This document shows positions 5,418 through 61,810 of a stretch of 64,000 nt of DNA, in pieces. The stretch covers positions 1 to 64,000 of the IMG/VR virus record IMGVR_UViG_3300013830_000006; one strand, given 5' to 3'. How positions within the stretch are numbered: position 1 is the first letter of the stretch; each line of letters starts with the position of its first letter. The notes beneath the pieces are model-generated. The model saw only the letters and a program-made list of their open reading frames with translations. It did not search any database and was not told where the DNA came from. Position numbers and translations under genes: made by a program. Origin of the DNA: a virus (Duplodnaviria > Caudoviricetes).

Positions 5418-5532
5418 GATTAACTCCTTAATAGTTGCTTAATAAATTGACCATATGAATAATGCATGGAAATAATTAATTTGAAAAAAAAAATAAAACC
5501 CAGAGTCTTTCGGCTCCGGGTTCCATTTCTCA

Positions 5533-6202: not shown

Positions 6203-9200
6203 ATGTATCAGATGGAAGATTTTGATAAGTTAATGTGGGGGGATTTCGACTATAAGAATAGAGATTTTCCTGAAGAAGCAACTGAGCGTATGAATGAACA
6301 GAGATTCGCTCGTGAATACACTGTTTACAAGATGGGTGATTTGGTTAATAAGATTATCACCTTGGATAAGAAGTTTGAATTACCGTTTAATTCAATTCTT
6401 CATGTGCTTGACAACGTATCTTATCCAGATAATTATCAGGATGCTCCAAGAGTAGATGAGAATGAATTTATTCAGAGAGAATCGGGTAAGAAGTTTATCT
6501 ATCACATCAGAGAATTAGATACTACTGGCCCTATTGTTTATCCAGATAAATTTATTTTAAGGTTTGCTGGATTACCTACTACTTTAATGAAGTTCAGACA
6601 GCAGCAAGGTTCTAATTTCCGTTACTTAAATAAGATAGAAGAATTTCCTACTAATAACTTATACTTAATAGTCGTTAATCACAATCCGTTATTCAGAATG
6701 AGGATGTATGGCAGACTTCCTTATTTCAGAATTATGCAGCAGATATTAGCTTCAGTGTTTAATACTTGTGATAAACTTAAGTATCAGCATAGACATCAGT
6801 TTATTTTACTGCCTTGGTCATCTGAAGTATATGACAAATCGTTGTTTATTCGTTCCCGTAAAGAGTTAACGCCTTCAACAGTAAGAAAGCCTAATAGTTT
6901 TCACTTTATTTTTATGATGCATCTGGTTAATTTCCTATGGGAAAAAGAAACAACTTCTATGTTAGAGAAGTTAGATGATGAAACGTTAGCTCAGATTAAC
7001 ATCATTTTAAAACATAATGATAAATATCTGATCTTTAATCTTAAAAAGATTAAAGATTTTAATGCTAAGAATATCATCTATTATAGATTCGTTAATCAGT
7101 TAAATCTCTTAGCACTTATGGGAAGTGAAGAGGCTGAGAAACATCAGGATACTATCAATCAGTTAATTGAAGAGAATAAATCTGAAACAGAAAATACTAC
7201 TTTTGAAATTAAATCACCTGAGGATAAAACTGAGTTAGATGAAGTACATCAGGATACAGTTATCAATAAGTTAGTATCAGTTATTAAGCCTAAGAAAGAA
7301 ATAGCTCCAGTACGTGCAGCTGCTGCAATTAAGACTTATGTACCTCAGCCTAAAGAAGTAATGAGAGAAGTCAAACCTTCAGGTGAACAGGTAGTAAGAA
7401 GAGTAGCTATTGTAAACAAGATAGCTAACGTATCTACTATTTCAACTAAAGAAACCAAAGATACTTATGCAGAAGAGTATGTAAAAGATCTTGACACCGA
7501 AACCAATGATTTTATTGATAATAACGAAGATCTTACTCCTGCTGCCAAACAGCATTTTAAGAAATTAGCTGCAAAATATAAAGAATGTAAGGTAGATGGT
7601 GTATACATCTCCAAACTGCTACTTGATCATTCTGATATAGGATTGGAGAAAGAAGTACTTAATGAGAAAGTAGTGGGATTTGCACCAGATAAATCTGCTT
7701 TGGAGAGTTCTACTGATACATTTGAGAAGAGTTATAGAGAAAAGACATTTAAGAAACATTTTGCTGGTGTGATTTCATCATTCCAGAACAAAGGTGTATT
7801 CTTAACTGATGTTAAACAGGAAGTAATAGCAGATCCTCTTAATAATTATACGTTGTATACCTGTTCTTATGAAGATATACATAGTAAGAAATCTACTATT
7901 AAGATTAAGATACCTAACATCGATAGCAATGATAGATTTATAGCTGATGGTAACCCTATGGTTATCAAGAAGCAACGTTGCGCATTGCCTATTATTAAGA
8001 TCAATGACCACGAAGTAGCGTTAGCTTCTAACTATAACAAAACCCGTGTAGTAAGGAACACTACTAAGGCGCATAGCTTTACTGGTTATGTAGAAAGCTT
8101 TGTAAATAATAAGGATAAATCCACTGCAAGTATCATATTCGGTAGCCTCGATATCAACGAGCCTATCTCTTATGAATACTGCATGATGGCTAAACGCTTT
8201 AATGAAATTACTTTTACCAATAAAGATAAGTTTGTATTGGTATTTGACTACTATCATAGATTCAATCATGTTAAAGCTTCACAGGTTAGTCCAGAGAAAG
8301 TAGAAAAGTTAGAAAATAATTATGGTACTTTCTTTGGTTATAATACCAATGATATATTCTTTATTGATAATACTAATCAGGTATTTGCGGTTAATAAAAA
8401 GAATTTCAGTGAAGATGTAGATTTCCCTTATACATCGTTATTGGATCTTCTTAAATTATCTTTAAGAGATGGAATAGAAGTTAAAAAAGCTCTCAGTGAA
8501 TTTCTTACTATTAAGATACTTAATGCTGAATTACCTGTAATGATTATGTTAGCTTACAGGTATGGTCTCAGAAGAATGTTAGACTATATCGGTATAGAGT
8601 ACTACATTACTGAGAACAGATCTAAGATTATTGTAAGTGAAAGTACTCCTGCTACTGAGTCATTCGGAGTTAATTCAGACAGAGTGGCTGGTTCTGATGA
8701 GCTTGAAATACTTTATGGTAAAGATTGGATTAAACCTAGAAATGATTCTAAGCCCAATATTGTTATAACCAATAGAAGAGCTGAACAGGATGAAACTGAT
8801 TATGAGATTCTTCAGAATGATAGAAATAAAAATGATCTGACGTATAGTTTACCTGGTACAGAAGATCTTAAAGTATTCGAAGAAGATGGTTCTACCCGTA
8901 TTCTGTGGCAGCATCTTAATGCTGGAATGTGTATTGCATTAATAGCTGATCCTAATCCAGAATATCTGAATACTGATGATGAAGCAACAGAATATGCACG
9001 TTCTATTATAAAGAAATACGATAGAAATGGTGATCTGTTTCTTATGACTGATGATACGTGGGCTAAAGAAATTTGCCAGAAATATCATTTAGACAGACAT
9101 CCTGATATTGTGTTTAGAGGAGGAACAGTTTACTGTTCCTGTTCTGGCGGTACTATTCTTTTGTATGAAAAATTATTTGAGGCCTTTCCTGAAGCTTTTT

Positions 9201-25028: not shown

Positions 25029-26429
25029 TTAATCGCCAGTAGGTGCATTACTATTATTATAGAAACTAATTTTCTTATGATATGCTTCCTTTAAATCGTT
25101 TAATGCATTTACTTTATCAGGGTCTTTTATATCGTAATCATTCAATACCTCTGTTAGCATATGCTCTATTGTTGTATTATATTTTTTGCAGATTAAACCG
25201 TTTTTAGCAGTATTGCCATAGCATTGTGATACAAAGGCAGAGGCATCTTTAATTTTCAGAATCATTTCTTTAACACCATTAAAAGCTTCTTGAGGTGAAC
25301 TAGGACCTGTAGGTGAACCGCCTTGTTGCTGAGACTGAGTCTGAGGTGTCGCACTGCTTGTATTTATAAGAGTATCAAGTTTTTTGAGTTGTTCATTGGT
25401 TTCTTTAATCAGCTCATCGATGTCCTTTGTTGTCTTTTCAATATCGGCTCTACCTTTTTTAATATTAAGTAGAACATAAGTAGATTCATTAGGCGTTGAT
25501 ACAATTATTTTCGTCTTTTCTTTACTCCACGGAGTTGAATTTTTATCATCACCCAGCAAGTTTTTATAGTCGCTGCCACCATTAGTACCTGATATGGTGT
25601 CAGATTGATTTTGAATTTCTTGTATCTTGGACGTTGCTGCTAACTTGTTAAGTGCTGGTTCTACCTGTTTTAGCATTGCTAGTGCCGCGTTAGATGCGTT
25701 ATCCGCTGCCTTAGCTAACTCACCATTTTTAGCATCATTTTCCACATAATACATTGTCTCATTTAAAATATCTTTTAAATCAGACTTAACATGATCTCTG
25801 AAAGCATCGGCATCAAATTTCTTTTTCTTATTGTATTTTTTAATGACATCACCAGTGGATTCAACAAGTGCTTTGATAACCTTTTTTATTTCACTCTTAG
25901 TGCTTAAGTGCGAATTATCTATGTCTACTTCTTTCCAAGCTTCTTTTATTTTTTTCCATAATGCTCTAAAAGGAGTAGTTATCCATTTAAATACTGCTTT
26001 AATTGTTTTCCACAATACTTTAAAGAATTTACCAATAGTCTTACCTATGCCTTCCATACATACTAAGGATAGCTCAGAATACGGACTGCCTATATTAGAC
26101 ATAGATTCACAGGAAGGTAAAGTTACATTAAGATAATTAGCAAATCTATTGTTTCTATTGAGTAAACTTAATACAGCTCTGTCTGCTCCATAGTTTTTAA
26201 TGTAACTTTGATAAGCAATCATCTCATCTAAACAGGTAGAAGCTAAGTCAGCTTTAGTCTGAATAGCTTCTGCTTCGAATTCCAATGCTTCCATACCTTT
26301 ATCAAGAGCTTCATAATCAACTGGCTCTTTAGGAGTAGAAGGATCGTCGAAGCACTCCTCTTCTACAGGGTCATACCTGGTTTTAAGCGCTTCTATCCCA
26401 TAAAACACATCATCTAACGAATGCCTCAT
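25029..26429 (-). CDS. Probable internal head protein with cleavable propeptide
   Basis: Acidic N-terminus with GIE-A, GME-A, ALE-F and CME-G sites, then the amphipathic KFFKVLWKTIKAVFKWI helix typical of phiKZ-like inner head proteins. Confidence 0.6.
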   Translation of the reverse strand: MRHSLDDVFYGIEALKTRYDPVEEECFDDPSTPKEPVDYEALDKGMEALEFEAEAIQTKADLASTCLDEMIAYQSYIKNYGADRAVLSLLNRNNRFANYLNVTLPSCESMSNIGSPYSELSLVCMEGIGKTIGKFFKVLWKTIKAVFKWITTPFRALWKKIKEAWKEVDIDNSHLSTKSEIKKVIKALVESTGDVIKKYNKKKKFDADAFRDHVKSDLKDILNETMYYVENDAKNGELAKAADNASNAALAMLKQVEPALNKLAATSKIQEIQNQSDTISGTNGGSDYKNLLGDDKNSTPWSKEKTKIIVSTPNESTYVLLNIKKGRADIEKTTKDIDELIKETNEQLKKLDTLINTSSATPQTQSQQQGGSPTGPSSPQEAFNGVKEMILKIKDASAFVSQCYGNTAKNGLICKKYNTTIEHMLTEVLNDYDIKDPDKVNALNDLKEAYHKKISFYNNSNAPTGD

Positions 26430-26543
26430 TTATTTTTCCTCTTAGTGAATGGGGTAAATTACTATTTTATGACTAAAATGCTTATACTCTCTGATACTCA
26501 ATAACGAGTATCAGAGAGCTTAGATTCAGAACTAAAATAATTG

Positions 26544-26687
26544 TTACTTAGCAGACACGTGCTTAACTCTGTCACGAACCTCAGCCATCTTAGCACTATT
26601 AAATCTTTCAACCTTAGCCAGATAACCAGTAATCCTTGCAACGCGATTAAACTTAACACCAACACCGATTAATGTATTTCTTGTCAT
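26544..26687 (-). CDS. Stand-alone NrdD glycyl-radical domain (47 aa; not in the ORF track)
   Basis: MTRNTLIGVGVKFNRVARITGYLAKVERFNSAKMAEVRDRVKHVSAK*; GGAG RBS; RITGYL and E..DRVKH motifs; hairpin at about 26487-26518. Confidence 0.88.
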   Translation of the reverse strand: MTRNTLIGVGVKFNRVARITGYLAKVERFNSAKMAEVRDRVKHVSAK

Positions 26688-26853
26688 AGGTAGTACTCCG
26701 TTTAGTAACATGTAATCTACATCAACACTTAATGTAGTATAGCATTATTTACTTAATTCAATTTTTTGACAAAAAATAAAAAATCGAATATATAGGAAAA
26801 AAAAATAGCCGCACCTTTCGATGCAGCTAACTTTTACTACTACAATACCCTCC

Positions 26854-27414
26854 TTACATATCGTAGTAGTATTCAAACCCTTCGTTATCTGCAATACCGT
26901 AGGCATCGGGAGCCTTTTTAATCTTAGGCTCTCCTTTCGTTACCTTAATGACGTGATAATATGCATCACGTCCGTTAGTGTTAAGAGCCCATACGGTATC
27001 ATCAGAGATCCACTTCTCAAAGATCTCATCACAATGTTCATGATACCCTTCATGGATACCACACCCACTGTCCCAGATGTAATTTCGACCATCGATGAGA
27101 TAAGTCTTTTTCATCTCTGTCGCAGAGATGAAAAAATCAGCGCAGTTCTTACCATTGCTGATGGTCGCCATAAACCCATGACGCTTTTCCTCGCCAAACA
27201 CCTTGACGATATTGTCAGGATTGTTCCTGACAAAGTCAATCAACATCTCCGCAATGGAGAATAAATCAGCCTCGGGCTGATCCCATTCCACCCTTTTATC
27301 GCAGGTGGATTCACGGCCTACATAGACAATCTTCCCAAGAATGTCCATAGGCTCTCTCCATTTCTCCGTTACTTTTACAGTTACTCTTACGTGCATAATG
27401 CCTCCTTTTGCCAC
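26854..27414 (-). CDS. Hypothetical protein
   Basis: ORF with promoter-like motif at 27472; start may be the internal MHVRV after GGAGG. Confidence 0.6.
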   Translation of the reverse strand: MAKGGIMHVRVTVKVTEKWREPMDILGKIVYVGRESTCDKRVEWDQPEADLFSIAEMLIDFVRNNPDNIVKVFGEEKRHGFMATISNGKNCADFFISATEMKKTYLIDGRNYIWDSGCGIHEGYHEHCDEIFEKWISDDTVWALNTNGRDAYYHVIKVTKGEPKIKKAPDAYGIADNEGFEYYYDM

Positions 27415-27498
27415 TAGAAAGCAAAAATAAAAGAAGTGACGTACCTATCTAGTATCGGCTACGTCACTTTAATAATATATTGCTATTTTTTTTTTCAA

Positions 27499-27690
27499 TT
27501 ACTTAGTTGCTCTTTTAGCATCAGTAACAACTTTGCAATTGCTAATAAACTTACGCAGATCTTCATCTGTAACTCTGTAGCTGTTGCCGATCTTAACTGC
27601 ACTCAACTTACCAGATTCTACGTACCTGTAAATGGTAGTCATACTGACACGTAACATCTTGGCTACCTCTTTTAAAGTATAAAACTCCAT
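27499..27690 (-). CDS. Excisionase-family HTH DNA-binding protein
   Basis: FYTLKEVAKMLRVSMTTIYRYVESGKLSAVKIGNSYRV. Confidence 0.88.
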   Translation of the reverse strand: MEFYTLKEVAKMLRVSMTTIYRYVESGKLSAVKIGNSYRVTDEDLRKFISNCKVVTDAKRATK

Positions 27691-27699
27691 AACTATCTC

Positions 27700-27999
27700 C
27701 TAATAGCTGGCTAATTCATACCTTCTGCAATATTTAGAAATACTGCGAGAAGGTTCAATCACTGGACGGCAAGAAGGATCTACTATCTGATAGTCATAAT
27801 GATACCGATCCTTATTGAACTCTTCGATAGGAAGATAAATGTCCTCTTTCCAATCATAAACCCATTCCTCTTCATCAGTGTCAGCATTAACACCGATGGT
27901 AAAGCGCGGCATCGTTACGTTGATAATTGCCACACAGAAAATAACGAACAAATTAAAACAAATAGCCCAAATTAAAACTTTAGAAATTTTATTTATCAT
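27700..27999 (-). CDS. Small membrane-anchored protein
   Basis: N-terminal hydrophobic helix; GAGG RBS. Confidence 0.6.
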   Translation of the reverse strand: MINKISKVLIWAICFNLFVIFCVAIINVTMPRFTIGVNADTDEEEWVYDWKEDIYLPIEEFNKDRYHYDYQIVDPSCRPVIEPSRSISKYCRRYELASY

Positions 28000-28156
28000 A
28001 TTTACCTCATTCGTTAGTTAAAATTATACTGATCTAACACTACTGTAGACCAGCATCAATCTACAATGATAATGTATATTCGTACATTTTTTGATTTTTG
28101 TGAAAAGACCCAGACAGCAGCTATCACTGTCTGGGCTTTTTACTGCTTAATTTAAC

Positions 28157-31100
28157 TTAAATATCGTTAGTTGTTGTATCGTTATCTTCAAGCATATCTT
28201 TATCTACTGCATACTCAGGAGTAGGTCTGTATGTATGTAACTCTAATAACTTTCCAGCAGGTACACCTTCGCCTTCATGTCTGCCACATCTGGGACATAC
28301 ACCACCAAGAGGAATATGACCAACATAGCCGCATACAGGATCATGATCGATAGGATGGTTGATACTGAAATAAGTCATTCCGCTATCAGCCATAGCATCG
28401 ACTAATTTCTCCATAGCTTCGGTATTTTTAGTTGCGTCATAATCAAGTTCAATATAACTGATAACACCTGCACTGCACAGAGGATGATAAGGTGCTTCTA
28501 TCTTAATCTTATCATAAGCACTGATCTTGTAGTATACAGGTACATGACAGCTGTTCGTAATATACTCTCTGTCAGTAACTCCTTTGATAATACCAAAACG
28601 TTTTCTGCATGCTCTTAATAATCTGCCAGCGCATCCTTCAGCAGGAGTAGCAAACAAACTATAGTTTACTTTTTCCTTCTTGGCATAATCAGCTATACGA
28701 TCATGCATACGTTTAACTATTGCTAATCCTTTCTCCTGAGACTCTTTAGATTCGCCATGATGCTTACCAAACAGTGCAACCAAACATTCAGCTAATCCAC
28801 AGAATCCAACACTCTGAGATCCTTCTTTGATAGCCTGTTCAATTGAATCATCAGGAGTAAGATTCTCACTGCCAATGTACAGATGCTGTCCCATAGCAAA
28901 CGGGAAATTCTTAGCTTTACGTCTGCAGGCTAATTTGAATCTTTCCTTACTGAAAGCGATACAGTCATCTACACGGGTATCAAGAGCTTTATTAAATGCA
29001 TCATATAACTCTTCAGTAGTAGCATCAGGATTATTCTCTTTAACCTCTAATGCCAGATAAGGAAGATTAATAGTGGTAAAGAACAAATTACCTCTTCCTG
29101 TTACCTGACGATGTTTAGGATCATAAGTGTTGTCAATCACCCGGGTACGACAGTTGTGACTAAAGACACCTGAAAGATCAAAACGATCACTCTCGGTTTC
29201 AACATCATAACTTGGCTCAGCTATATCAAGTTTCTCAATTCTTTTAACCGAAATTATTTTAATTTCATCATGAGTAATTTCGTCGCGAAAAGGCGTACCC
29301 AAGACTGATATTTTTGATGAATCAACAAGTTTATAATGCGAAATAGCTTTGATGCAATCACCAACTTTAAGATTATCTACAGTAGTACGACCTCTCCCTT
29401 CAATCGGCAACGGATGATCACCTGTTACAATTATAGAACGATTATCAGAAAAAGTTATTTTCCAGAAATTAAATGATACTTTGTTATGAATAAGCGTTTT
29501 AACGTTAACAAATCCGCCACTATGCGAATCATAAACTTGTAACTCATCTCCAGAAAAGTAAATCACTTCGCAATTTTCAGTTATATGACTGATCGAATGC
29601 TGCATTGAGCACAGTTGCCACAGGGTGCTAAACGGATATGTAAACCATCCAGCTTTAGTTCTTATAGTAACTGATTCGTGTCCTTCAGCACATCCCATCG
29701 TCGCTACTTCTGTCTCAGGATGTCCTTTCTTATAATACTGGATATTCATAGGTGCAGAGACATTAACCCAATTAGGGAAGCCTCTCTTAGCTGATACTCT
29801 GATAGACTGCTGATACAAATCATAGTTCTTACAGCCTTTAGTAGTAACGCCTTTGAGTATCTTGAAAATAGCTATAGGGAAAATAGCTGTTTCACCAGCA
29901 CCTAATCCAGCATCAATAGCATTCATGAAATTTTTTGATACCATCCTGCCTTCTTCAGAAATATCGGTACCAAAATTACATGAACTAAAAGGAACCTGAC
30001 CACCTGATCTGGATGCTAATGTACAAAGATTGTGTATCAATGCTTCCATAGCCTGATAGGTTTCTCGTTCAGTCTTACGGTATGCATAATCAAACATATT
30101 CTCATGATTCAGATATCTTGGATCATTTGTAAACGGCAATGTATTCAGCAACACATCTTCAATTTTTGTTTTCCCTTCATCATCCATGATGTGCTCATGA
30201 ATATCGATATAAGCATCGATCGGTTCAATTAATTTTTCTTTAAGATATGCTGTTAGATCAAACTTTGAAAACATTGCCATTGTCATACCATCGATTGGTT
30301 CAAATACGTCTTCATATTTAATCTCAAGATATCTTGCTATATTTCTGATATATGATTTGGCTACAAAAGGAGCAAGATCATAATCAAGGGTCGGAATAGC
30401 TTGACCACCCGAATATCGGTATTCTGACTATATCATCTACTTCACCTTTCAGTGTTAAGTAGCCACATTTTTGGAATCAGTTCCAATTTCTGATTCTACT
30501 CTACTCGGTTACTCATAACAAATTGAGAGATCATCTAGCATAATCTCACCTTTGAAATTACCCTTTCGATAGTCGATTAACCTGTTACTTAGATGTTTGA
30601 TGTACTTTATGATTGATATTCATCTAAAATAACGTGGCACAGGATTGCCATATTCCCAAGCTATTTAAAACTGAATATGGTGTCCCCTGTTAGCAGAACA
30701 ATTAAGAACTCATTTACTAGTTCAAATCTTTCGACTTGTTCCACACCTTTTGGATAAAGTTAACGTGGTTTTCAATATACATTTCTGTATAAGGCTTCAG
30801 TGCTGTCTAAAGAAATCATTCTGCGAGGATTGGATGATAATAGCTATAAGAGTAGATGCACTTCCTATAGATTTAGGAGTTCTGAGATATCCATGACCTG
30901 TACTGAATCCAGTTCTCAGTAATCTTCCAGCAGGTATCATTAAGCAGTTAACAGCAAACATCGCAAGATCGCTATCGTGAATATGTATCTTGCCATCAAA
31001 ATGCATTTTAGCATACTTGGGTGAAATGTGATTGAAGAAATAATCTTTCATCACAGCTCCACCTACTTTGAATAAGCTGCCGCACATCGTATCTGCGTTA

Positions 31101-31465
31101 ATGTTAGCATTCTCACGTTTTTCATCAGAGTTAGCTGCATCAATGTTAACCAGATCATCAATAACATTATTAAGTTTAAGCTTACTTGTTCTTGCCTTGG
31201 TTCTCGCTTCTCTGTACTTGATGTACTCCTTAGCTACTGCTATGTAACCATTAGCAATAAGTGCATCTTCTACTACATCCTGAATATGCTCAACAGGAAC
31301 ATATTCCTTATTCTCATGAATAAGTTTGGTGTTAACATACTCAGCACAAATCTTAGAAGGTGCTGCTGAATCCATATCACAAGCTTCGAATGCTTTAAAA
31401 ATAGCATTCTGGATTTTGATAAGATTGTAATCTACAATTGTACCATCTCGTTTAACAACTTGCAT
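28157..31465 (-). CDS. nrdD: Anaerobic ribonucleoside-triphosphate reductase large subunit; exon 1 31465-30809, exon 2 30409-28157; contains an intein; lacks the Gly-radical tail
   Basis: ATP cone (VVKRDG), IHIHD, splicing restores QNDFF-GGQ, SRSGGQVPFS, intein removal restores TMG-CRT, ATPAEG, C-terminal CPRC. Confidence 0.93.
29153..29692 (-). mobile_element. Mini-intein (180 aa) in NrdD
   Basis: Starts Cys (CAEGHE), block B VTGDHPL, block F YDVET, ends SHN with +1 Cys; no endonuclease domain. Confidence 0.92.
30410..30808 (-). mobile_element. ORF-less group I intron (399 nt) in nrdD
   Basis: P1 CUUU|AG pairs with CUGAAG with U-G at the splice site; core AACAGGGGA, AATCCTGTG, TCGACTA, GATATAGTC; terminal G; frame restored. 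Confidence 0.92.
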
Positions 31466-31882: not shown

Positions 31883-32407
31883 TTAAATCTTATTAGTTAC
31901 ATCAACGAATTCAATATCGTTATCAGTTACTACCGGAGTATAGATTTTCTGATTACTGCTGCCAGCCCATTTAACAGTACTGGGAGTTTTATCCTGTTCA
32001 AATCTTCCAACTTTAATGTAGTTAAACATAGATAAAAACAGCTTAAATCTTTCCTGAGTATGACACTTATGTATCAACTCATTTAGATCAGCACCTGTGA
32101 ATAGCATATAATCATATTCACGATTTGCTTCAGTTACTTTCTGCTTAATATAGATTAAAGTATCCAGAAGATCGTTATATTGATAAACAGGATCACCACC
32201 GCTAATAGTAACTCCAGTTTCAATAGGATCCTGCAATATCTCATTAGCTAATTCTTCTGAAGATATATCAACACCAGTACCGAATGCCCAGGTATGTTCA
32301 GAATGACAGCCTTTACAATGTCTTTTGCATCCCTGAACAAATACAGTACATCTCAATCCAGGACCATTAGCACCATCATCATGAATTATTCCCGCTAAGT
32401 TGATCAT
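31883..32407 (-). CDS. nrdG: Anaerobic RNR activase (radical SAM)
   Basis: NGPGLR..FVQGCKRHCKGCH, GVTISGGDP, GSSNQ. Confidence 0.93.
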   Translation of the reverse strand: MINLAGIIHDDGANGPGLRCTVFVQGCKRHCKGCHSEHTWAFGTGVDISSEELANEILQDPIETGVTISGGDPVYQYNDLLDTLIYIKQKVTEANREYDYMLFTGADLNELIHKCHTQERFKLFLSMFNYIKVGRFEQDKTPSTVKWAGSSNQKIYTPVVTDNDIEFVDVTNKI

Positions 32408-58716: not shown

Positions 58717-59844
58717 TTAAACTTCTACAATATAAGTAAGATACTTATTTATGGTTTCTTTATCGAAAACACCTAAGTTGTTTTCCAATAAGAATTGACA
58801 AATTAAATTAGGAAGATTTTCTCTGCTTGGTTTAATATTGTCAAAAGTATCCAACTCTATATTATCCAGTTTAATTTCTGTTTTTTCTGTATCAGATATT
58901 GGTTTGGAAGTATATCTTAAAGATGGATATTCCTGTAAACAAATTTTATTTAACAATAATCTTATTTCAGGATCGTTATGTGCTACTCTTACATTACCTG
59001 TCTTATTAGGAAAGATATTAGCTATCTGAGAGTTGAAATCTGCTATAATTTCAGCTGTAGTATTCCCCTGGGGGTAAATAGTCACAAATAATGACGCCTG
59101 ATCATTCTTGACGAAGGTAGCTTTCCATTTTCCAGATGAATTGTCAAAAGTATAGAAACCTTTAGGTTGTTCCTCACCATGAGACATTCTTTCGAATGAA
59201 CCACAGTAATAAACATTCTTCTTATGGCTGGAAATATGAATATGACCCATGATAATCAAACTATCTTCAGTAGTTATCTTATCAAATTGCTCTATAGTGT
59301 ATGTACAGGGTGGAAGATGATTAGTTGATACTGGAAGAGCATGAGAAAATGTTCCATGACCTAAAACAATATCAACAGTTTTCCACCCCATAACAGTAAG
59401 CACTTTATCTATATGTTCCATAACTTCTTCACTTCTTTTATAAGAAAGATTATCTGGAATGTATAAAACTTTAAAGTGCTTGCCTTTGACGACTAAATCT
59501 TCACAGGATATCTCATTAATTATTTTCGCATCAGTATCTTTAAGCTTAAGCTCATTAAGAACATTCAATTGATTTCTATCATGAGAATAAGTACCATGAA
59601 GTATTCTTATAGGTACATGAGATTTAGCTGAGAATACAAACAATTCTCTGATGAATTTAGAGATGAAACAATTAGCATCACTATTAACTGTAACTAACTG
59701 ATCAAATAAATCACCTGTTAATAAAACTAAATCAGATGTATCTACCTCAGGATAAAATGATGCTCTTAATTCGTTGTACAATAAACTGCAGTTGATTCTC
59801 GGATTACCAAAATGAAAATCACCTGCTGCTGCTATTTTAGTCAT
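58717..59844 (-). CDS. SbcD/Mre11-like metallophosphoesterase nuclease
   Basis: GDFHFG, GDLFD, GTYSHD, GHIH, YCGSFER..HGEE..KGF. Confidence 0.9.
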   Translation of the reverse strand: MTKIAAAGDFHFGNPRINCSLLYNELRASFYPEVDTSDLVLLTGDLFDQLVTVNSDANCFISKFIRELFVFSAKSHVPIRILHGTYSHDRNQLNVLNELKLKDTDAKIINEISCEDLVVKGKHFKVLYIPDNLSYKRSEEVMEHIDKVLTVMGWKTVDIVLGHGTFSHALPVSTNHLPPCTYTIEQFDKITTEDSLIIMGHIHISSHKKNVYYCGSFERMSHGEEQPKGFYTFDNSSGKWKATFVKNDQASLFVTIYPQGNTTAEIIADFNSQIANIFPNKTGNVRVAHNDPEIRLLLNKICLQEYPSLRYTSKPISDTEKTEIKLDNIELDTFDNIKPSRENLPNLICQFLLENNLGVFDKETINKYLTYIVEV

Positions 59845-60521
59845 TCTTCAAATACCAATACGTCTTCGTCATCGACTTCCGAAGCAGCTGCTTTTTTCTC
59901 TTGTACATTCTCCTGTTTTTGGTCATTTACTTCCTCCTTGGGACCATTGTACCAATAATTATTACTGAATGATTTTGCTAATTTAGCATATTGATTCTGA
60001 TCAGCTTTAAGTTGATCATTGTCTTGAACACGTAAGATATTACGATACAGATTATCTGTAGCTATTTGTTTTCTTACATAAGCAGATGGATTACTTATAT
60101 CAGATTCTTCAAACGTGCTGGCAAGTATCTGAGTAGCTTCTGCCTGTTCAGCAGTTGTCAAAGTATTTAATCGTCTGAATAAAGGAGGAAGAACAAAAAT
60201 CTCTTCTCCACTATAATCATCAACTATATGAATAGGTCGCTGAGTATTGACACTATGATAAAATTCTTCTGATAACTCAGCGATATGTTCACGTTCTTCT
60301 CTGGTAGCTTCAGTCGAAGCTAAACGATCTCTGGTAGACTTCAGATAAAGAACAGCAAACTTTTCAAAATCAGAATGCTTCATATAAGTATCATGTTCAG
60401 CATTAGTCACAAAATCCTTATACATCGCATCAATATTACGTTCACGCAATGTTGCTGGATTAGTATCAACAGTGACATTTCGTAATTGCTGATCAAGAGA
60501 TTCTATGTTTTGATTACTCAT
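59841..60521 (-). CDS. Conserved hypothetical protein
   Basis: 226-aa ORF coupled to sbcD by an ATGA overlap. Confidence 0.6.
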   Translation of the reverse strand: MSNQNIESLDQQLRNVTVDTNPATLRERNIDAMYKDFVTNAEHDTYMKHSDFEKFAVLYLKSTRDRLASTEATREEREHIAELSEEFYHSVNTQRPIHIVDDYSGEEIFVLPPLFRRLNTLTTAEQAEATQILASTFEESDISNPSAYVRKQIATDNLYRNILRVQDNDQLKADQNQYAKLAKSFSNNYWYNGPKEEVNDQKQENVQEKKAAASEVDDEDVLVFEE

Positions 60522-60524
60522 ATC

Positions 60525-60974
60525 TTACTCCAAACTTGCTGTATCTGTAGTATTACTAAACTTTAATTTTATTTCATTAGTCTTTTTATCTGTAGTTATA
60601 TCACCGGTAATGAAAGCCGATTCAAAACCTGTAGATGACATAGGTTCTATAGCTATTTTAAAAGCTATAGTGTATAATCCATTCTTTACATCTTTTTGAT
60701 AATCAGATACTGAAAATTCACAATCAAAATTATAATCCCTAAATTTATTAGACAAAAAATTTTTTACAGTACTTTCTAACGTACTGGCAAATAAATCTCT
60801 GTCGCTATCATACTTGGAAGATAAGTATCTGAAACTATATAATCGATCTTCCCAGAGATCAGAAGTTCCGCCTGGATTCATGATAAAAAATTTAACGAAA
60901 TGCATAACCTGATCTCTAACATCAGTCAGATATCCAGCTGATGAAGATAAAGTAGGTGTTATACTTATGGCCAT
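60525..60974 (-). CDS. Conserved jumbo-phage protein (phiKZ gp62-like by synteny)
   Basis: N-terminal PTLSS..GY pattern; synteny. Confidence 0.45.
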   Translation of the reverse strand: MAISITPTLSSSAGYLTDVRDQVMHFVKFFIMNPGGTSDLWEDRLYSFRYLSSKYDSDRDLFASTLESTVKNFLSNKFRDYNFDCEFSVSDYQKDVKNGLYTIAFKIAIEPMSSTGFESAFITGDITTDKKTNEIKLKFSNTTDTASLE

Positions 60975-61081
60975 AGATATTATCCTTGATTTTACTGTAC
61001 TATCTTATAATCAGCTGTAAACAAAAAATAAAAGCAGCAGTCTTTCGACTGCTGCCCATTATTACTACAACCTATCAGAAA

Positions 61082-61810
61082 TTACTTAGGTCTCCTACCC
61101 CTGAGATTGATCTTCTGATATTTAGTCGACGAGAAGATCTTTGCCAATTCTGCAAGAGTCGTCTGCTTGTTAATTTCATCGAAGCCATATACTTTAAGTA
61201 CTGACTTGATGGATCTCGAAACATACTTGATGTACTCATGAAACGCAGGGTACACTTCATCAAAAAGATGAACAATGTTGTATTCAACAAATACAGCTCT
61301 TGCCTTATTTTTCTGTGCCAAAAATTCCTTAGTGACTAACTTCAAATCAAGAAGCTGTGCAAACTTACATTCTCCGTACGCATGGTACGTAGGAGAATTG
61401 TAAATCTGCTTTGTGGATTCTACTCCAATTGACAGAAATGCATCAACCAATTCAGCCCATGCAAATTCGGCATTTTCAGGAATCTTCTCTGCAAACGGTG
61501 TATCCAGATCATACACCTGCTTAGATTCTTCCTGCTCTTCCGCCTTATTGTCAGCCTTACTGCCAGTTACTGCAAAGCTAATAGACTTATTTGCAGTATT
61601 CTTCTGAAGAGCATCCAAAAGAAGTTTACTAGCCTCGTCCTTGGTGAACTCACTAATTGCAATACTAGCACTCTCACCTTCCTTACTGCAAACATTAATG
61701 TTCACGGTAAGCCCCTTTTCAAAACCAGATAAAACAGCTACAACCATAGCCGTAATTCTAGAATCAACCATATTATCATTCTCCAAAAACACGCGTGTTA
61801 TTGAAGCCAA
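61082..61810 (-). CDS. Hypothetical protein ending in RGRRPK
   Basis: TTG start with GAGG RBS; TATATATTAC at 61837. Confidence 0.6.
   Translation of the reverse strand: MASITRVFLENDNMVDSRITAMVVAVLSGFEKGLTVNINVCSKEGESASIAISEFTKDEASKLLLDALQKNTANKSISFAVTGSKADNKAEEQEESKQVYDLDTPFAEKIPENAEFAWAELVDAFLSIGVESTKQIYNSPTYHAYGECKFAQLLDLKLVTKEFLAQKNKARAVFVEYNIVHLFDEVYPAFHEYIKYVSRSIKSVLKVYGFDEINKQTTLAELAKIFSSTKYQKINLRGRRPK

Follow-up and report, generated by a model that had tools for sequence, protein, structure and literature searches.

A probable two-subunit class III ribonucleotide reductase in a rumen jumbo phage, with the radical glycine on a separate 47-residue protein

The stretch of DNA analysed here, called the window, consists of 64,000 nucleotides (positions 1 to 64,000) of the IMG/VR record IMGVR_UViG_3300013830_000006, and the system under study is its class III ribonucleotide reductase (RNR), encoded by nrdD together with the activase gene nrdG. 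The record analysed is 95.6 kb long, represents about 36% of the phage genome by CheckV and belongs to a rumen jumbo phage. Class III RNR, an oxygen-sensitive enzyme of DNA-precursor synthesis, is the textbook glycyl-radical enzyme that carries the radical on its own C-terminus. This phage very probably encodes a native two-subunit class III RNR in which the radical glycine is located on a separate 47-residue protein. We base this reading on the exact division of the NRDD homology between two genes, the absence of another copy in the record, the conservation of the arrangement, the selection on its parts, the homology of the tail of the large chain, the presence of nrdG and the separate expression signals of the small gene. 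The nrdD gene was found on the minus strand in several pieces, namely a first exon, a group I intron-like RNA, a second exon that bears an intein, and a separate open reading frame (ORF) of 47 residues. All window features whose coordinates are given below lie on this strand.

Division of NrdD between two genes

The distal part of the NrdD body is encoded by the second exon, an ORF of 709 residues (28157-30286) that matches Pfam NRDD and Intein_splicing. This exon covers positions 94-531 of the 562 positions in the NRDD profile (E 4.5e-114), and the best sequence match of the body is the NrdD of Prevotella copri (PDB 8P23, E 3.6e-105), which it follows through chain residue 706. The zinc-ribbon cysteines near the C-terminus of the body, ending in a CPRC motif, align with those of 8P23 and of T4 NrdD. 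The RxxGY motif is absent from the body, where CPRC is followed by 41 residues and then by the stop codon. A small ORF at 26544-26711 matches NRDD positions 533-562 with 30.1 bits against a cut-off of 26.2 (E 2.6e-7), and it also matches residues 708-740 of 8P23. The NRDD profile divides exactly in this way, with the body extending to position 531 and the small ORF covering 533-562. No further NRDD match was observed in the whole 95.6-kb record beyond the nrdD pieces named here. The nrdG activase gene (31883-32407; Pfam Fer4_12, E 9.2e-30, and Radical_SAM, the radical S-adenosylmethionine family) is intact and located within the nrdD operon. The ATP-cone, the NRDD barrel, the zinc ribbon and nrdG, all features of the class III RNR family (Pfam PF13597, TIGR02487), are present and only the radical glycine was not found on the same chain.

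The gene for the putative 47-residue glycyl-radical subunit occupies positions 26544-26687, stop codon included. The ATG at 26687 is most likely the real start because a Shine-Dalgarno sequence, GGAG (26696-26699, read from the sequence), lies 8 nucleotides upstream of it and the closest relatives begin at the same methionine. The protein consists of a GxGVxF strand, which is GVGVKF in the window, followed by an RITGY radical loop and a C-terminal helix that ends in VKH. The exact protein was found on 326 contigs. Its sole Pfam match is NRDD, and no match to the Gly_radical family of the pyruvate formate-lyase type was obtained at E up to 0.1. Pfam, PHROGs and NCBIfam hold no dedicated family for this mini-protein, and databases label its relatives either as anaerobic ribonucleoside-triphosphate reductase or as hypothetical.

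Expression signals and the gap between the genes

The distance from the stop codon of the body to the start of the small gene is 1469 nucleotides and includes three ORFs (99, 63 and 186 residues) and three strong hairpins. Directly 3' of the body stop is a terminator-like hairpin followed by a U-rich run (28100-28143, folding energy -22.8 kcal/mol, z -4.7). The first gap gene (27700-27999, 99 residues) has a hydrophobic N-terminus and no family match. The second (27499-27690, 63 residues) encodes an excisionase-like DNA-binding protein (HTH_17, E 1.2e-16; phrog_66) and is followed by a hairpin of -15.4 kcal/mol. The third (26854-27414, 186 residues), for which no match was found in Pfam, PHROGs or the ESM Atlas, is followed by a terminator-like site, a hairpin with a run of nine U at 26806-26829. 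A stretch rich in histidine and cysteine was noticed in this 186-residue ORF. None of the three gap ORFs gave an endonuclease match in Pfam or PHROGs, and a homing endonuclease in the gap was rejected as a candidate.

A promoter-like site (TTGTCA, 17 nucleotides, AATAAT; 26732-26772) is located upstream of the small gene and overlaps an AT-rich block of 23 nucleotides (26732-26754). In the related phage lineage L001 (about 7940-7965) the small gene is preceded by the same block, conserved with one Y position, and the upstream neighbours differ between the two phages. The window contains a single copy of the block and the shuffles gave none, and the block may be the promoter for the small gene. 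Downstream of the small gene is a hairpin of 15 base pairs (26486-26519, -25.4 kcal/mol, z -6.5). With its own ribosome-binding site, the promoter-like block and the flanking hairpins, the small gene is predicted to be transcribed and translated separately. An earlier note on this DNA, made from the letters alone, had described a large NrdD that ends after the zinc-ribbon cysteines without RxxGY and, about 1.5 kb downstream and past three unrelated genes, a 47-residue ORF with its own ribosome-binding site and hairpin. All of these observations hold: the NRDD match of the body stops at 531/562, the small ORF has its ATG at 26687 with GGAG, RITGY and the 15-bp hairpin, and the genes between them are the 99-residue, 63-residue (HTH_17) and 186-residue ORFs.

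It is very improbable that the two pieces are joined into a single chain at the RNA or protein level, whether by a split intein or by a cis- or trans-acting intron of group I or II. Such a process would suit the intein and the group I intron-like RNA that occur in the gene, and a homology break that is precise to within a single profile position. However, Rfam searches of 26500-28320 at E up to 10 returned noise and no intron family, and the gap is filled with the three genes and three strong hairpins. The 41-residue tail of the body and the head of about 12 residues on the small protein are too short for the halves of a split intein and do not have its terminal residues, and no intein match was obtained except for the known intein. 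The residues past the break are conserved, under selection and homologous to bacterial tails, and the spacing between the two genes ranges among relatives from overlap to 5 kb. Among 5.8 billion clusters no fused protein close to the small protein of the phage is on record; the best longer proteins are ordinary bacterial NrdDs with 62-75% identity. As read from the sequence, the evidence says that the gap is neither an intron nor another kind of join.

The conserved tail of the body

The last 41 residues of the body (residues 669-709, 28160-28282) form a conserved tail without a match to one-piece enzymes. On a profile built from bacterial split tails only, with the zinc motif left out, the tail of the window scores 26.6 bits whereas the best of 1000 shuffles reached 6.2. 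The earlier note had called this segment an acidic tail. A tail does follow CPRC, but it is not a mere acidic run-on, since it is conserved, under selection and homologous to the tails of bacterial split enzymes.

The tail was also observed to resemble the small protein. It opens in the same manner, with a GEGV-type start followed by a comparable pattern of hydrophobic and charged residues, and an hhalign comparison of 40 tails with 40 small proteins aligned 40 columns with a probability of 75% (E 2.5e-5). MAFFT independently placed the radical strand of one-piece enzymes onto the tail. Some lineages keep a G-Y at the radical-glycine position of the tail, and in the window phage this glycine is replaced. 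The tail is probably a decayed duplicate of the radical domain. We propose with moderate confidence that the split arose by a tandem duplication of the 3' end of nrdD, in which the proximal copy would have decayed to the tail and the distal copy would have become the separate gene.

Many bacterial tails contain a CxC or CC pair (for example L099:5847-5978, L140:5836-5955 and L174:3398-3496), and the tail in the window has neither such a pair nor the G-Y. The cysteine pair or the kept G-Y in bacterial tails may represent a vestigial radical loop, or else a second site for metal or redox chemistry.

Related phages and selection

The split pair was found in three further phage lineages (L001, L091 and L084) with differing spacing. 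In L001, a contig of 218 kb, the body has the same tail at its end, and the small gene follows 5.08 kb downstream, past five genes that include a SNF2-type helicase. A weak homologue of the first gap gene of the window also occurs in the L001 gap. In L091 (327-4934) nrdD is found in three ORFs, which are a piece of 1058 residues, then, after an HNH/NUMOD4 endonuclease gene, a tail-ending piece of 113 residues, and a radical subunit of 58 residues whose ORF overlaps the end of the 113-residue piece in another frame. This structure was seen in three independent assemblies, and the HNH gene breaks nrdD at a different point, upstream of the zinc ribbon. In the L084 provirus the small ORF directly follows the body. 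Between the window and L001, where a 466-residue gene (described below) is found on opposite sides of the small gene, the surrounding genes have been rearranged and the small gene has been kept.

Between the window and L001, the small gene gave a ratio of nonsynonymous to synonymous substitution rates (dN/dS) of about 0.03 and the tail one of 0.07, so that both evolve no faster than the core (0.06) in broad terms; dS was 1.1-1.8, at which synonymous sites are saturated. These low values indicate that the small gene and the tail are under strong purifying selection, and both are therefore functional coding sequence. They also bear on the view that nrdD is a broken gene whose 3' fragment survives by chance while the phage relies on the host RNR. 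The gene is heavily invaded, with an intron, an intein and inserted genes, and there are reports of phages with fragmented nrdD genes of unknown status (PMC3653736). Even so, we consider decay extremely improbable, as the small gene, the tail and the core all show dN/dS of 0.03-0.07 at dS above 1, the small gene has an intact start, ribosome-binding site and stop, nrdG is intact, and the arrangement is conserved across phages and bacteria.

Split NrdD in bacteria

A scan of GTDB with one genome per species gave at least 587 related stretches, and the best 80 were classified. A core together with a mini-gene was observed in 45 of them, 20 are one-piece enzymes, and in the other 15 a mini-ORF stands alone, without a body within 6 kb. 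The 45 split loci consist of a body of about 760-800 residues with a homologous tail, followed by an ORF of 50-60 residues with its own ATG. The gaps between the two range from -83 to +298 nucleotides and all three relative frames occur; sequencing frameshifts are therefore no explanation. Carriers of the split form include Lachnospiraceae, Oscillospiraceae, uncultured Bacilli, Muribaculaceae, Fibrobacter, Desulfovibrio and Succinivibrionaceae. Akkermansia was not counted as a carrier, as the contig in question (L129, labelled Akkermansia muciniphila) is probably mis-binned: its mini-protein falls in a cluster whose names come only from Succinatimonas and Succinivibrio, and its body groups with Anaerobiospirillum.

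The GxGVxF head is common to the detached radical pieces, and its positions are variable in one-piece enzymes. The window phage carries both marks of the split lineage, that is, a body that ends after CxxCGR in a homologous tail of the GEGV type and a small ORF with its own start and the GxGVxF head. In a tree built from the last 300 core residues, the split or one-piece label needs about 5 changes compared with 18.5 when labels are shuffled, and the split therefore had few origins, not necessarily one. The phage body shares about 50-55% identity with split and one-piece bacterial enzymes alike, and groups only weakly (0.75) with a split clade of the Succinivibrionaceae type; no donor is therefore named.

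The earlier note had inferred a two-piece RNR, proposed a survey of the co-occurrence of tail-less nrdD with the small ORF, and cautioned that similar short ORFs might already exist in anaerobe genomes. The inference is supported on comparative grounds by the four phage lineages with differing spacing, the dN/dS of about 0.03 and the widespread bacterial split homologues. The survey found a tail-bearing core with a mini-gene in 45 of the 80 best GTDB matches, and the caution was justified, as hundreds of such ORFs exist. Since the split is widespread in bacteria, the phage is likely to have inherited a two-gene nrdD. The three intervening genes would then not be the cause of the split, which appears to be ancestral; they were presumably inserted later between genes that were already separate. 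The phage enzyme belongs to a large and apparently undescribed split form of class III RNR, and is not a local accident.

Lone mini-genes

Relatives of the small protein are encoded on 277 stretches in IMG/VR, of which the best 80 loci were examined, and 79 of these are small ORFs without a body within 10 kb. Thirty phage records were searched whole (19 of them at least 90% complete), and 27 were found to hold the mini-gene only. The other records include one provirus with the split pair and one complete phage of 119.6 kb with terminal repeats (L018, G004) that encodes a one-piece NrdD (59799-61427, profile positions 15-560) and two mini-ORFs (7804-7899 and 5420-5512). The sites of lone mini-genes include the lysis region and the integrase end of prophages, a moron-like placement. 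Five bacterial genomes with lone copies were also searched whole. Four of the five contain a split NrdD together with one to five extra unlinked mini-genes, and the remaining one contains two one-piece NrdDs and one lone mini-gene. As an example, Bilophila wadsworthia ATCC 49260 (L096, G031) has a split body with an adjacent mini-gene and five unlinked copies on other contigs, six in all, and the same pattern was observed in Desulfovibrio falkowii and in a metagenome-assembled genome of Mogibacterium, with 3 and 4 extra copies respectively. The distribution of lone mini-genes fits a detachable subunit that is carried by phages.

These findings also bear on a role of the small protein mainly as a spare or extra radical subunit for the NrdD of the host, in the manner of GrcA/YfiD and T4 Y06I for pyruvate formate-lyase, with the phage body secondary or also served. 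Such a main role would agree with the 27 of 30 whole-searched phage records in which the mini-gene occurs without an NrdD body (19 of the 30 at least 90% complete), with the moron-like sites beside lysis genes or integrase, and with the one to five extra unlinked copies in bacteria that have a split NrdD. It is distinctly unlikely nonetheless, as the phage body, lacking a radical loop, needs the small protein as a regular subunit, and as the small gene accompanies a tail-bearing body in all four related phage loci. Because the body is without a radical tip, the small protein would be the regular subunit in this phage and not a spare. The spare-subunit role is compatible with the two-subunit enzyme.

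The earlier note had proposed a cheap replaceable radical carrier; by analogy with GrcA/YfiD, this idea of a replaceable cartridge is a plausible hypothesis. A wider proposal, which we put forward tentatively and regard as rather unlikely, is that these 50-residue radical subunits are a mobile family that serves class III RNR as autonomous glycyl-radical cofactors, which would be the first such case apart from pyruvate formate-lyase. With the fragile radical on a cheap detachable chain, an enzyme damaged by O2 could be renewed by chain swap, phage copies with or without a body would sustain the synthesis of deoxyribonucleoside triphosphates in the infected anaerobe, and the decayed tail would be a docking or place-holding element that allows the exchange.

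Proposed assembly of the enzyme

In the two-subunit enzyme that we propose, the catalytic body would be produced from the two exons and freed of its intein, and would comprise the ATP-cone, the barrel, the zinc ribbon and the conserved tail in place of the radical loop. The 47-residue protein, which would be separately transcribed and translated, would carry the radical glycine loop and the C-terminal helix. It is expected to bind the body non-covalently, and the likely contacts are the tail of the body, the zinc ribbon and the GxGVxF strand. The phage NrdG would then place the radical on the glycine of the small protein, and the radical loop would enter the barrel beside the catalytic cysteine as in one-piece NrdD. 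The split would have been inherited from the widespread bacterial split-NrdD lineage, and in this phage the three inserted genes would have pushed the pieces 1.47 kb apart.

Three points limit this interpretation. First, AlphaFold2 modelling of a stop-read-through fusion of the bacterial split locus L162 gave a core with a mean predicted local distance difference test score of 82.8 and left the small part undocked, at a score of about 30. A likely cause is the MAFFT alignment, in which one-piece radical domains fall partly on the tail, and the model speaks neither for nor against assembly. Second, the record represents about 36% of the genome, so a second, one-piece nrdD may be present elsewhere in it. 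Third, the group I intron-like RNA between the nrdD exons (30405-30742; Rfam RF00028, E 5.9e-4) scores 27 bits and is thus under the Rfam gathering score of 50.

Comparison with known systems

One-piece NrdD has, after its zinc site, a buried loop that bears the radical glycine and then a surface tail, and the entire radical domain is mobile and must exit the barrel to reach the activase (PMC11226230). The phage system resembles the one-piece NrdD/NrdG systems of phage T4 (PDB 1H78) and P. copri (PDB 8P23; PMC11226230) in having the ATP-cone, barrel, cysteine loop, zinc ribbon, RxxGY loop and a radical-SAM activase gene. It differs from them in that the chain breaks off after the zinc ribbon, with a conserved tail added to the body, and the radical loop with its C-terminal helix forms a separate 47-residue protein with a GxGVxF head. 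In contrast to the group I intron of T4 nrdD, no catalytic intron fold was detected between the body and the small gene (26500-28320, E up to 10), where terminator-like hairpins are found instead.

GrcA/YfiD of E. coli and Y06I of phage T4, the cofactors of pyruvate formate-lyase (PMC8683613; PMC13450708), are likewise small stand-alone proteins with a glycyl-radical loop, and Y06I is also encoded by a phage. As with GrcA/YfiD, the small protein would be activated by the activase of its partner enzyme. However, it is homologous to the radical domain of NrdD and not to that of pyruvate formate-lyase, and it has 47 residues compared with about 127. Its partner lacks a radical domain of its own, so it would be a constitutive subunit rather than a repair part.

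The NrdA of Aeromonas phage Aeh1, which is split by the mobE endonuclease (PMC3045599), offers a further case in which two genes encode the catalytic subunit of a phage RNR. The Aeh1 pieces are thought to be held together by new tails at the break, without RNA or protein splicing (PMC3045599). The body in the window has a conserved and selected tail at its own break, for which an assembly role is putative. The two systems differ in class (class III in the window, class Ia in Aeh1), and in the window only the radical loop is detached and the gap holds no endonuclease gene. The split in the window would moreover be ancient and common to many bacteria, unlike a recent single insertion, and its tail resembles a decayed copy of the detached domain. 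The split class II RNR NrdJa/NrdJb (PMC9669993) is another natural two-chain RNR with a separate C-terminal module, which an extra C-terminal element of the body is proposed to bind. It belongs to another class with other chemistry, and NrdJb carries zinc-finger and redox cysteines and not the radical site.

Documented split RNR genes of phages comprise those with introns or inteins, endonuclease-split nrdA and fragmented nrdD of unknown status (PMC3653736, PMC3045599). Family-wide RNR surveys of 2022 described split class II (NrdJ) and not split class III (PMC9669993, PMC9531940). Glycyl-radical papers of 2021 and 2026 list only YfiD and Y06I as validated spare parts (PMC8683613, PMC13450708), and the superfamily review of June 2026 limits the known spare-part proteins to the formate lyases and leaves it to be determined whether other glycyl-radical enzymes have them (PMC13450708). 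Our full-text literature search, whose reach did not extend to subscription-only papers, found no description of a split NrdD or of an NrdD spare part. A separate radical protein of 47-60 residues makes the spare-part question directly testable for enzymes other than formate lyases and represents a minimal substrate for studying the access of the activase to the glycine. Many gut anaerobes and their phages would build an essential class III RNR unlike that of model organisms, and the split suggests a route to modular glycyl-radical enzymes. In annotation, given the present labels of the mini-genes, bodies without the radical tip could pass for truncated genes.

Other features of the nrdD region

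The first exon of nrdD (30797-31465) encodes the ATP-cone and NRDD positions 1-102. The intron-like RNA that follows it is without a long ORF, and NRDD homology continues on both sides of it. This homology runs upstream of the annotated ATG of the second exon at 30286, with profile positions 94-289 corresponding to window positions 29561-30439. The intein (29153-29692, about 180 residues; Pfam Intein_splicing, residues 229-378) is inserted directly before the catalytic cysteine of NrdD. The alignment of the body with 8P23 is interrupted between query residues 200 and 376, in agreement with the intein, and the catalytic cysteine loop aligns to 8P23 on either side of it. A single gene would thus need RNA splicing, protein splicing and non-covalent assembly.

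No DNA similarity to deposited phages was found. A tblastn search of the deposited phages with the small protein gave only five weak matches, four of them on unannotated gut contigs. The window has a gene of 466 residues (25029-26429) immediately downstream of the small gene, and the L001 homologue of this 466-residue gene (6705-7895, 36% identity), which has a faint match to a phiKZ internal protein, is located just upstream of the small gene in that phage.

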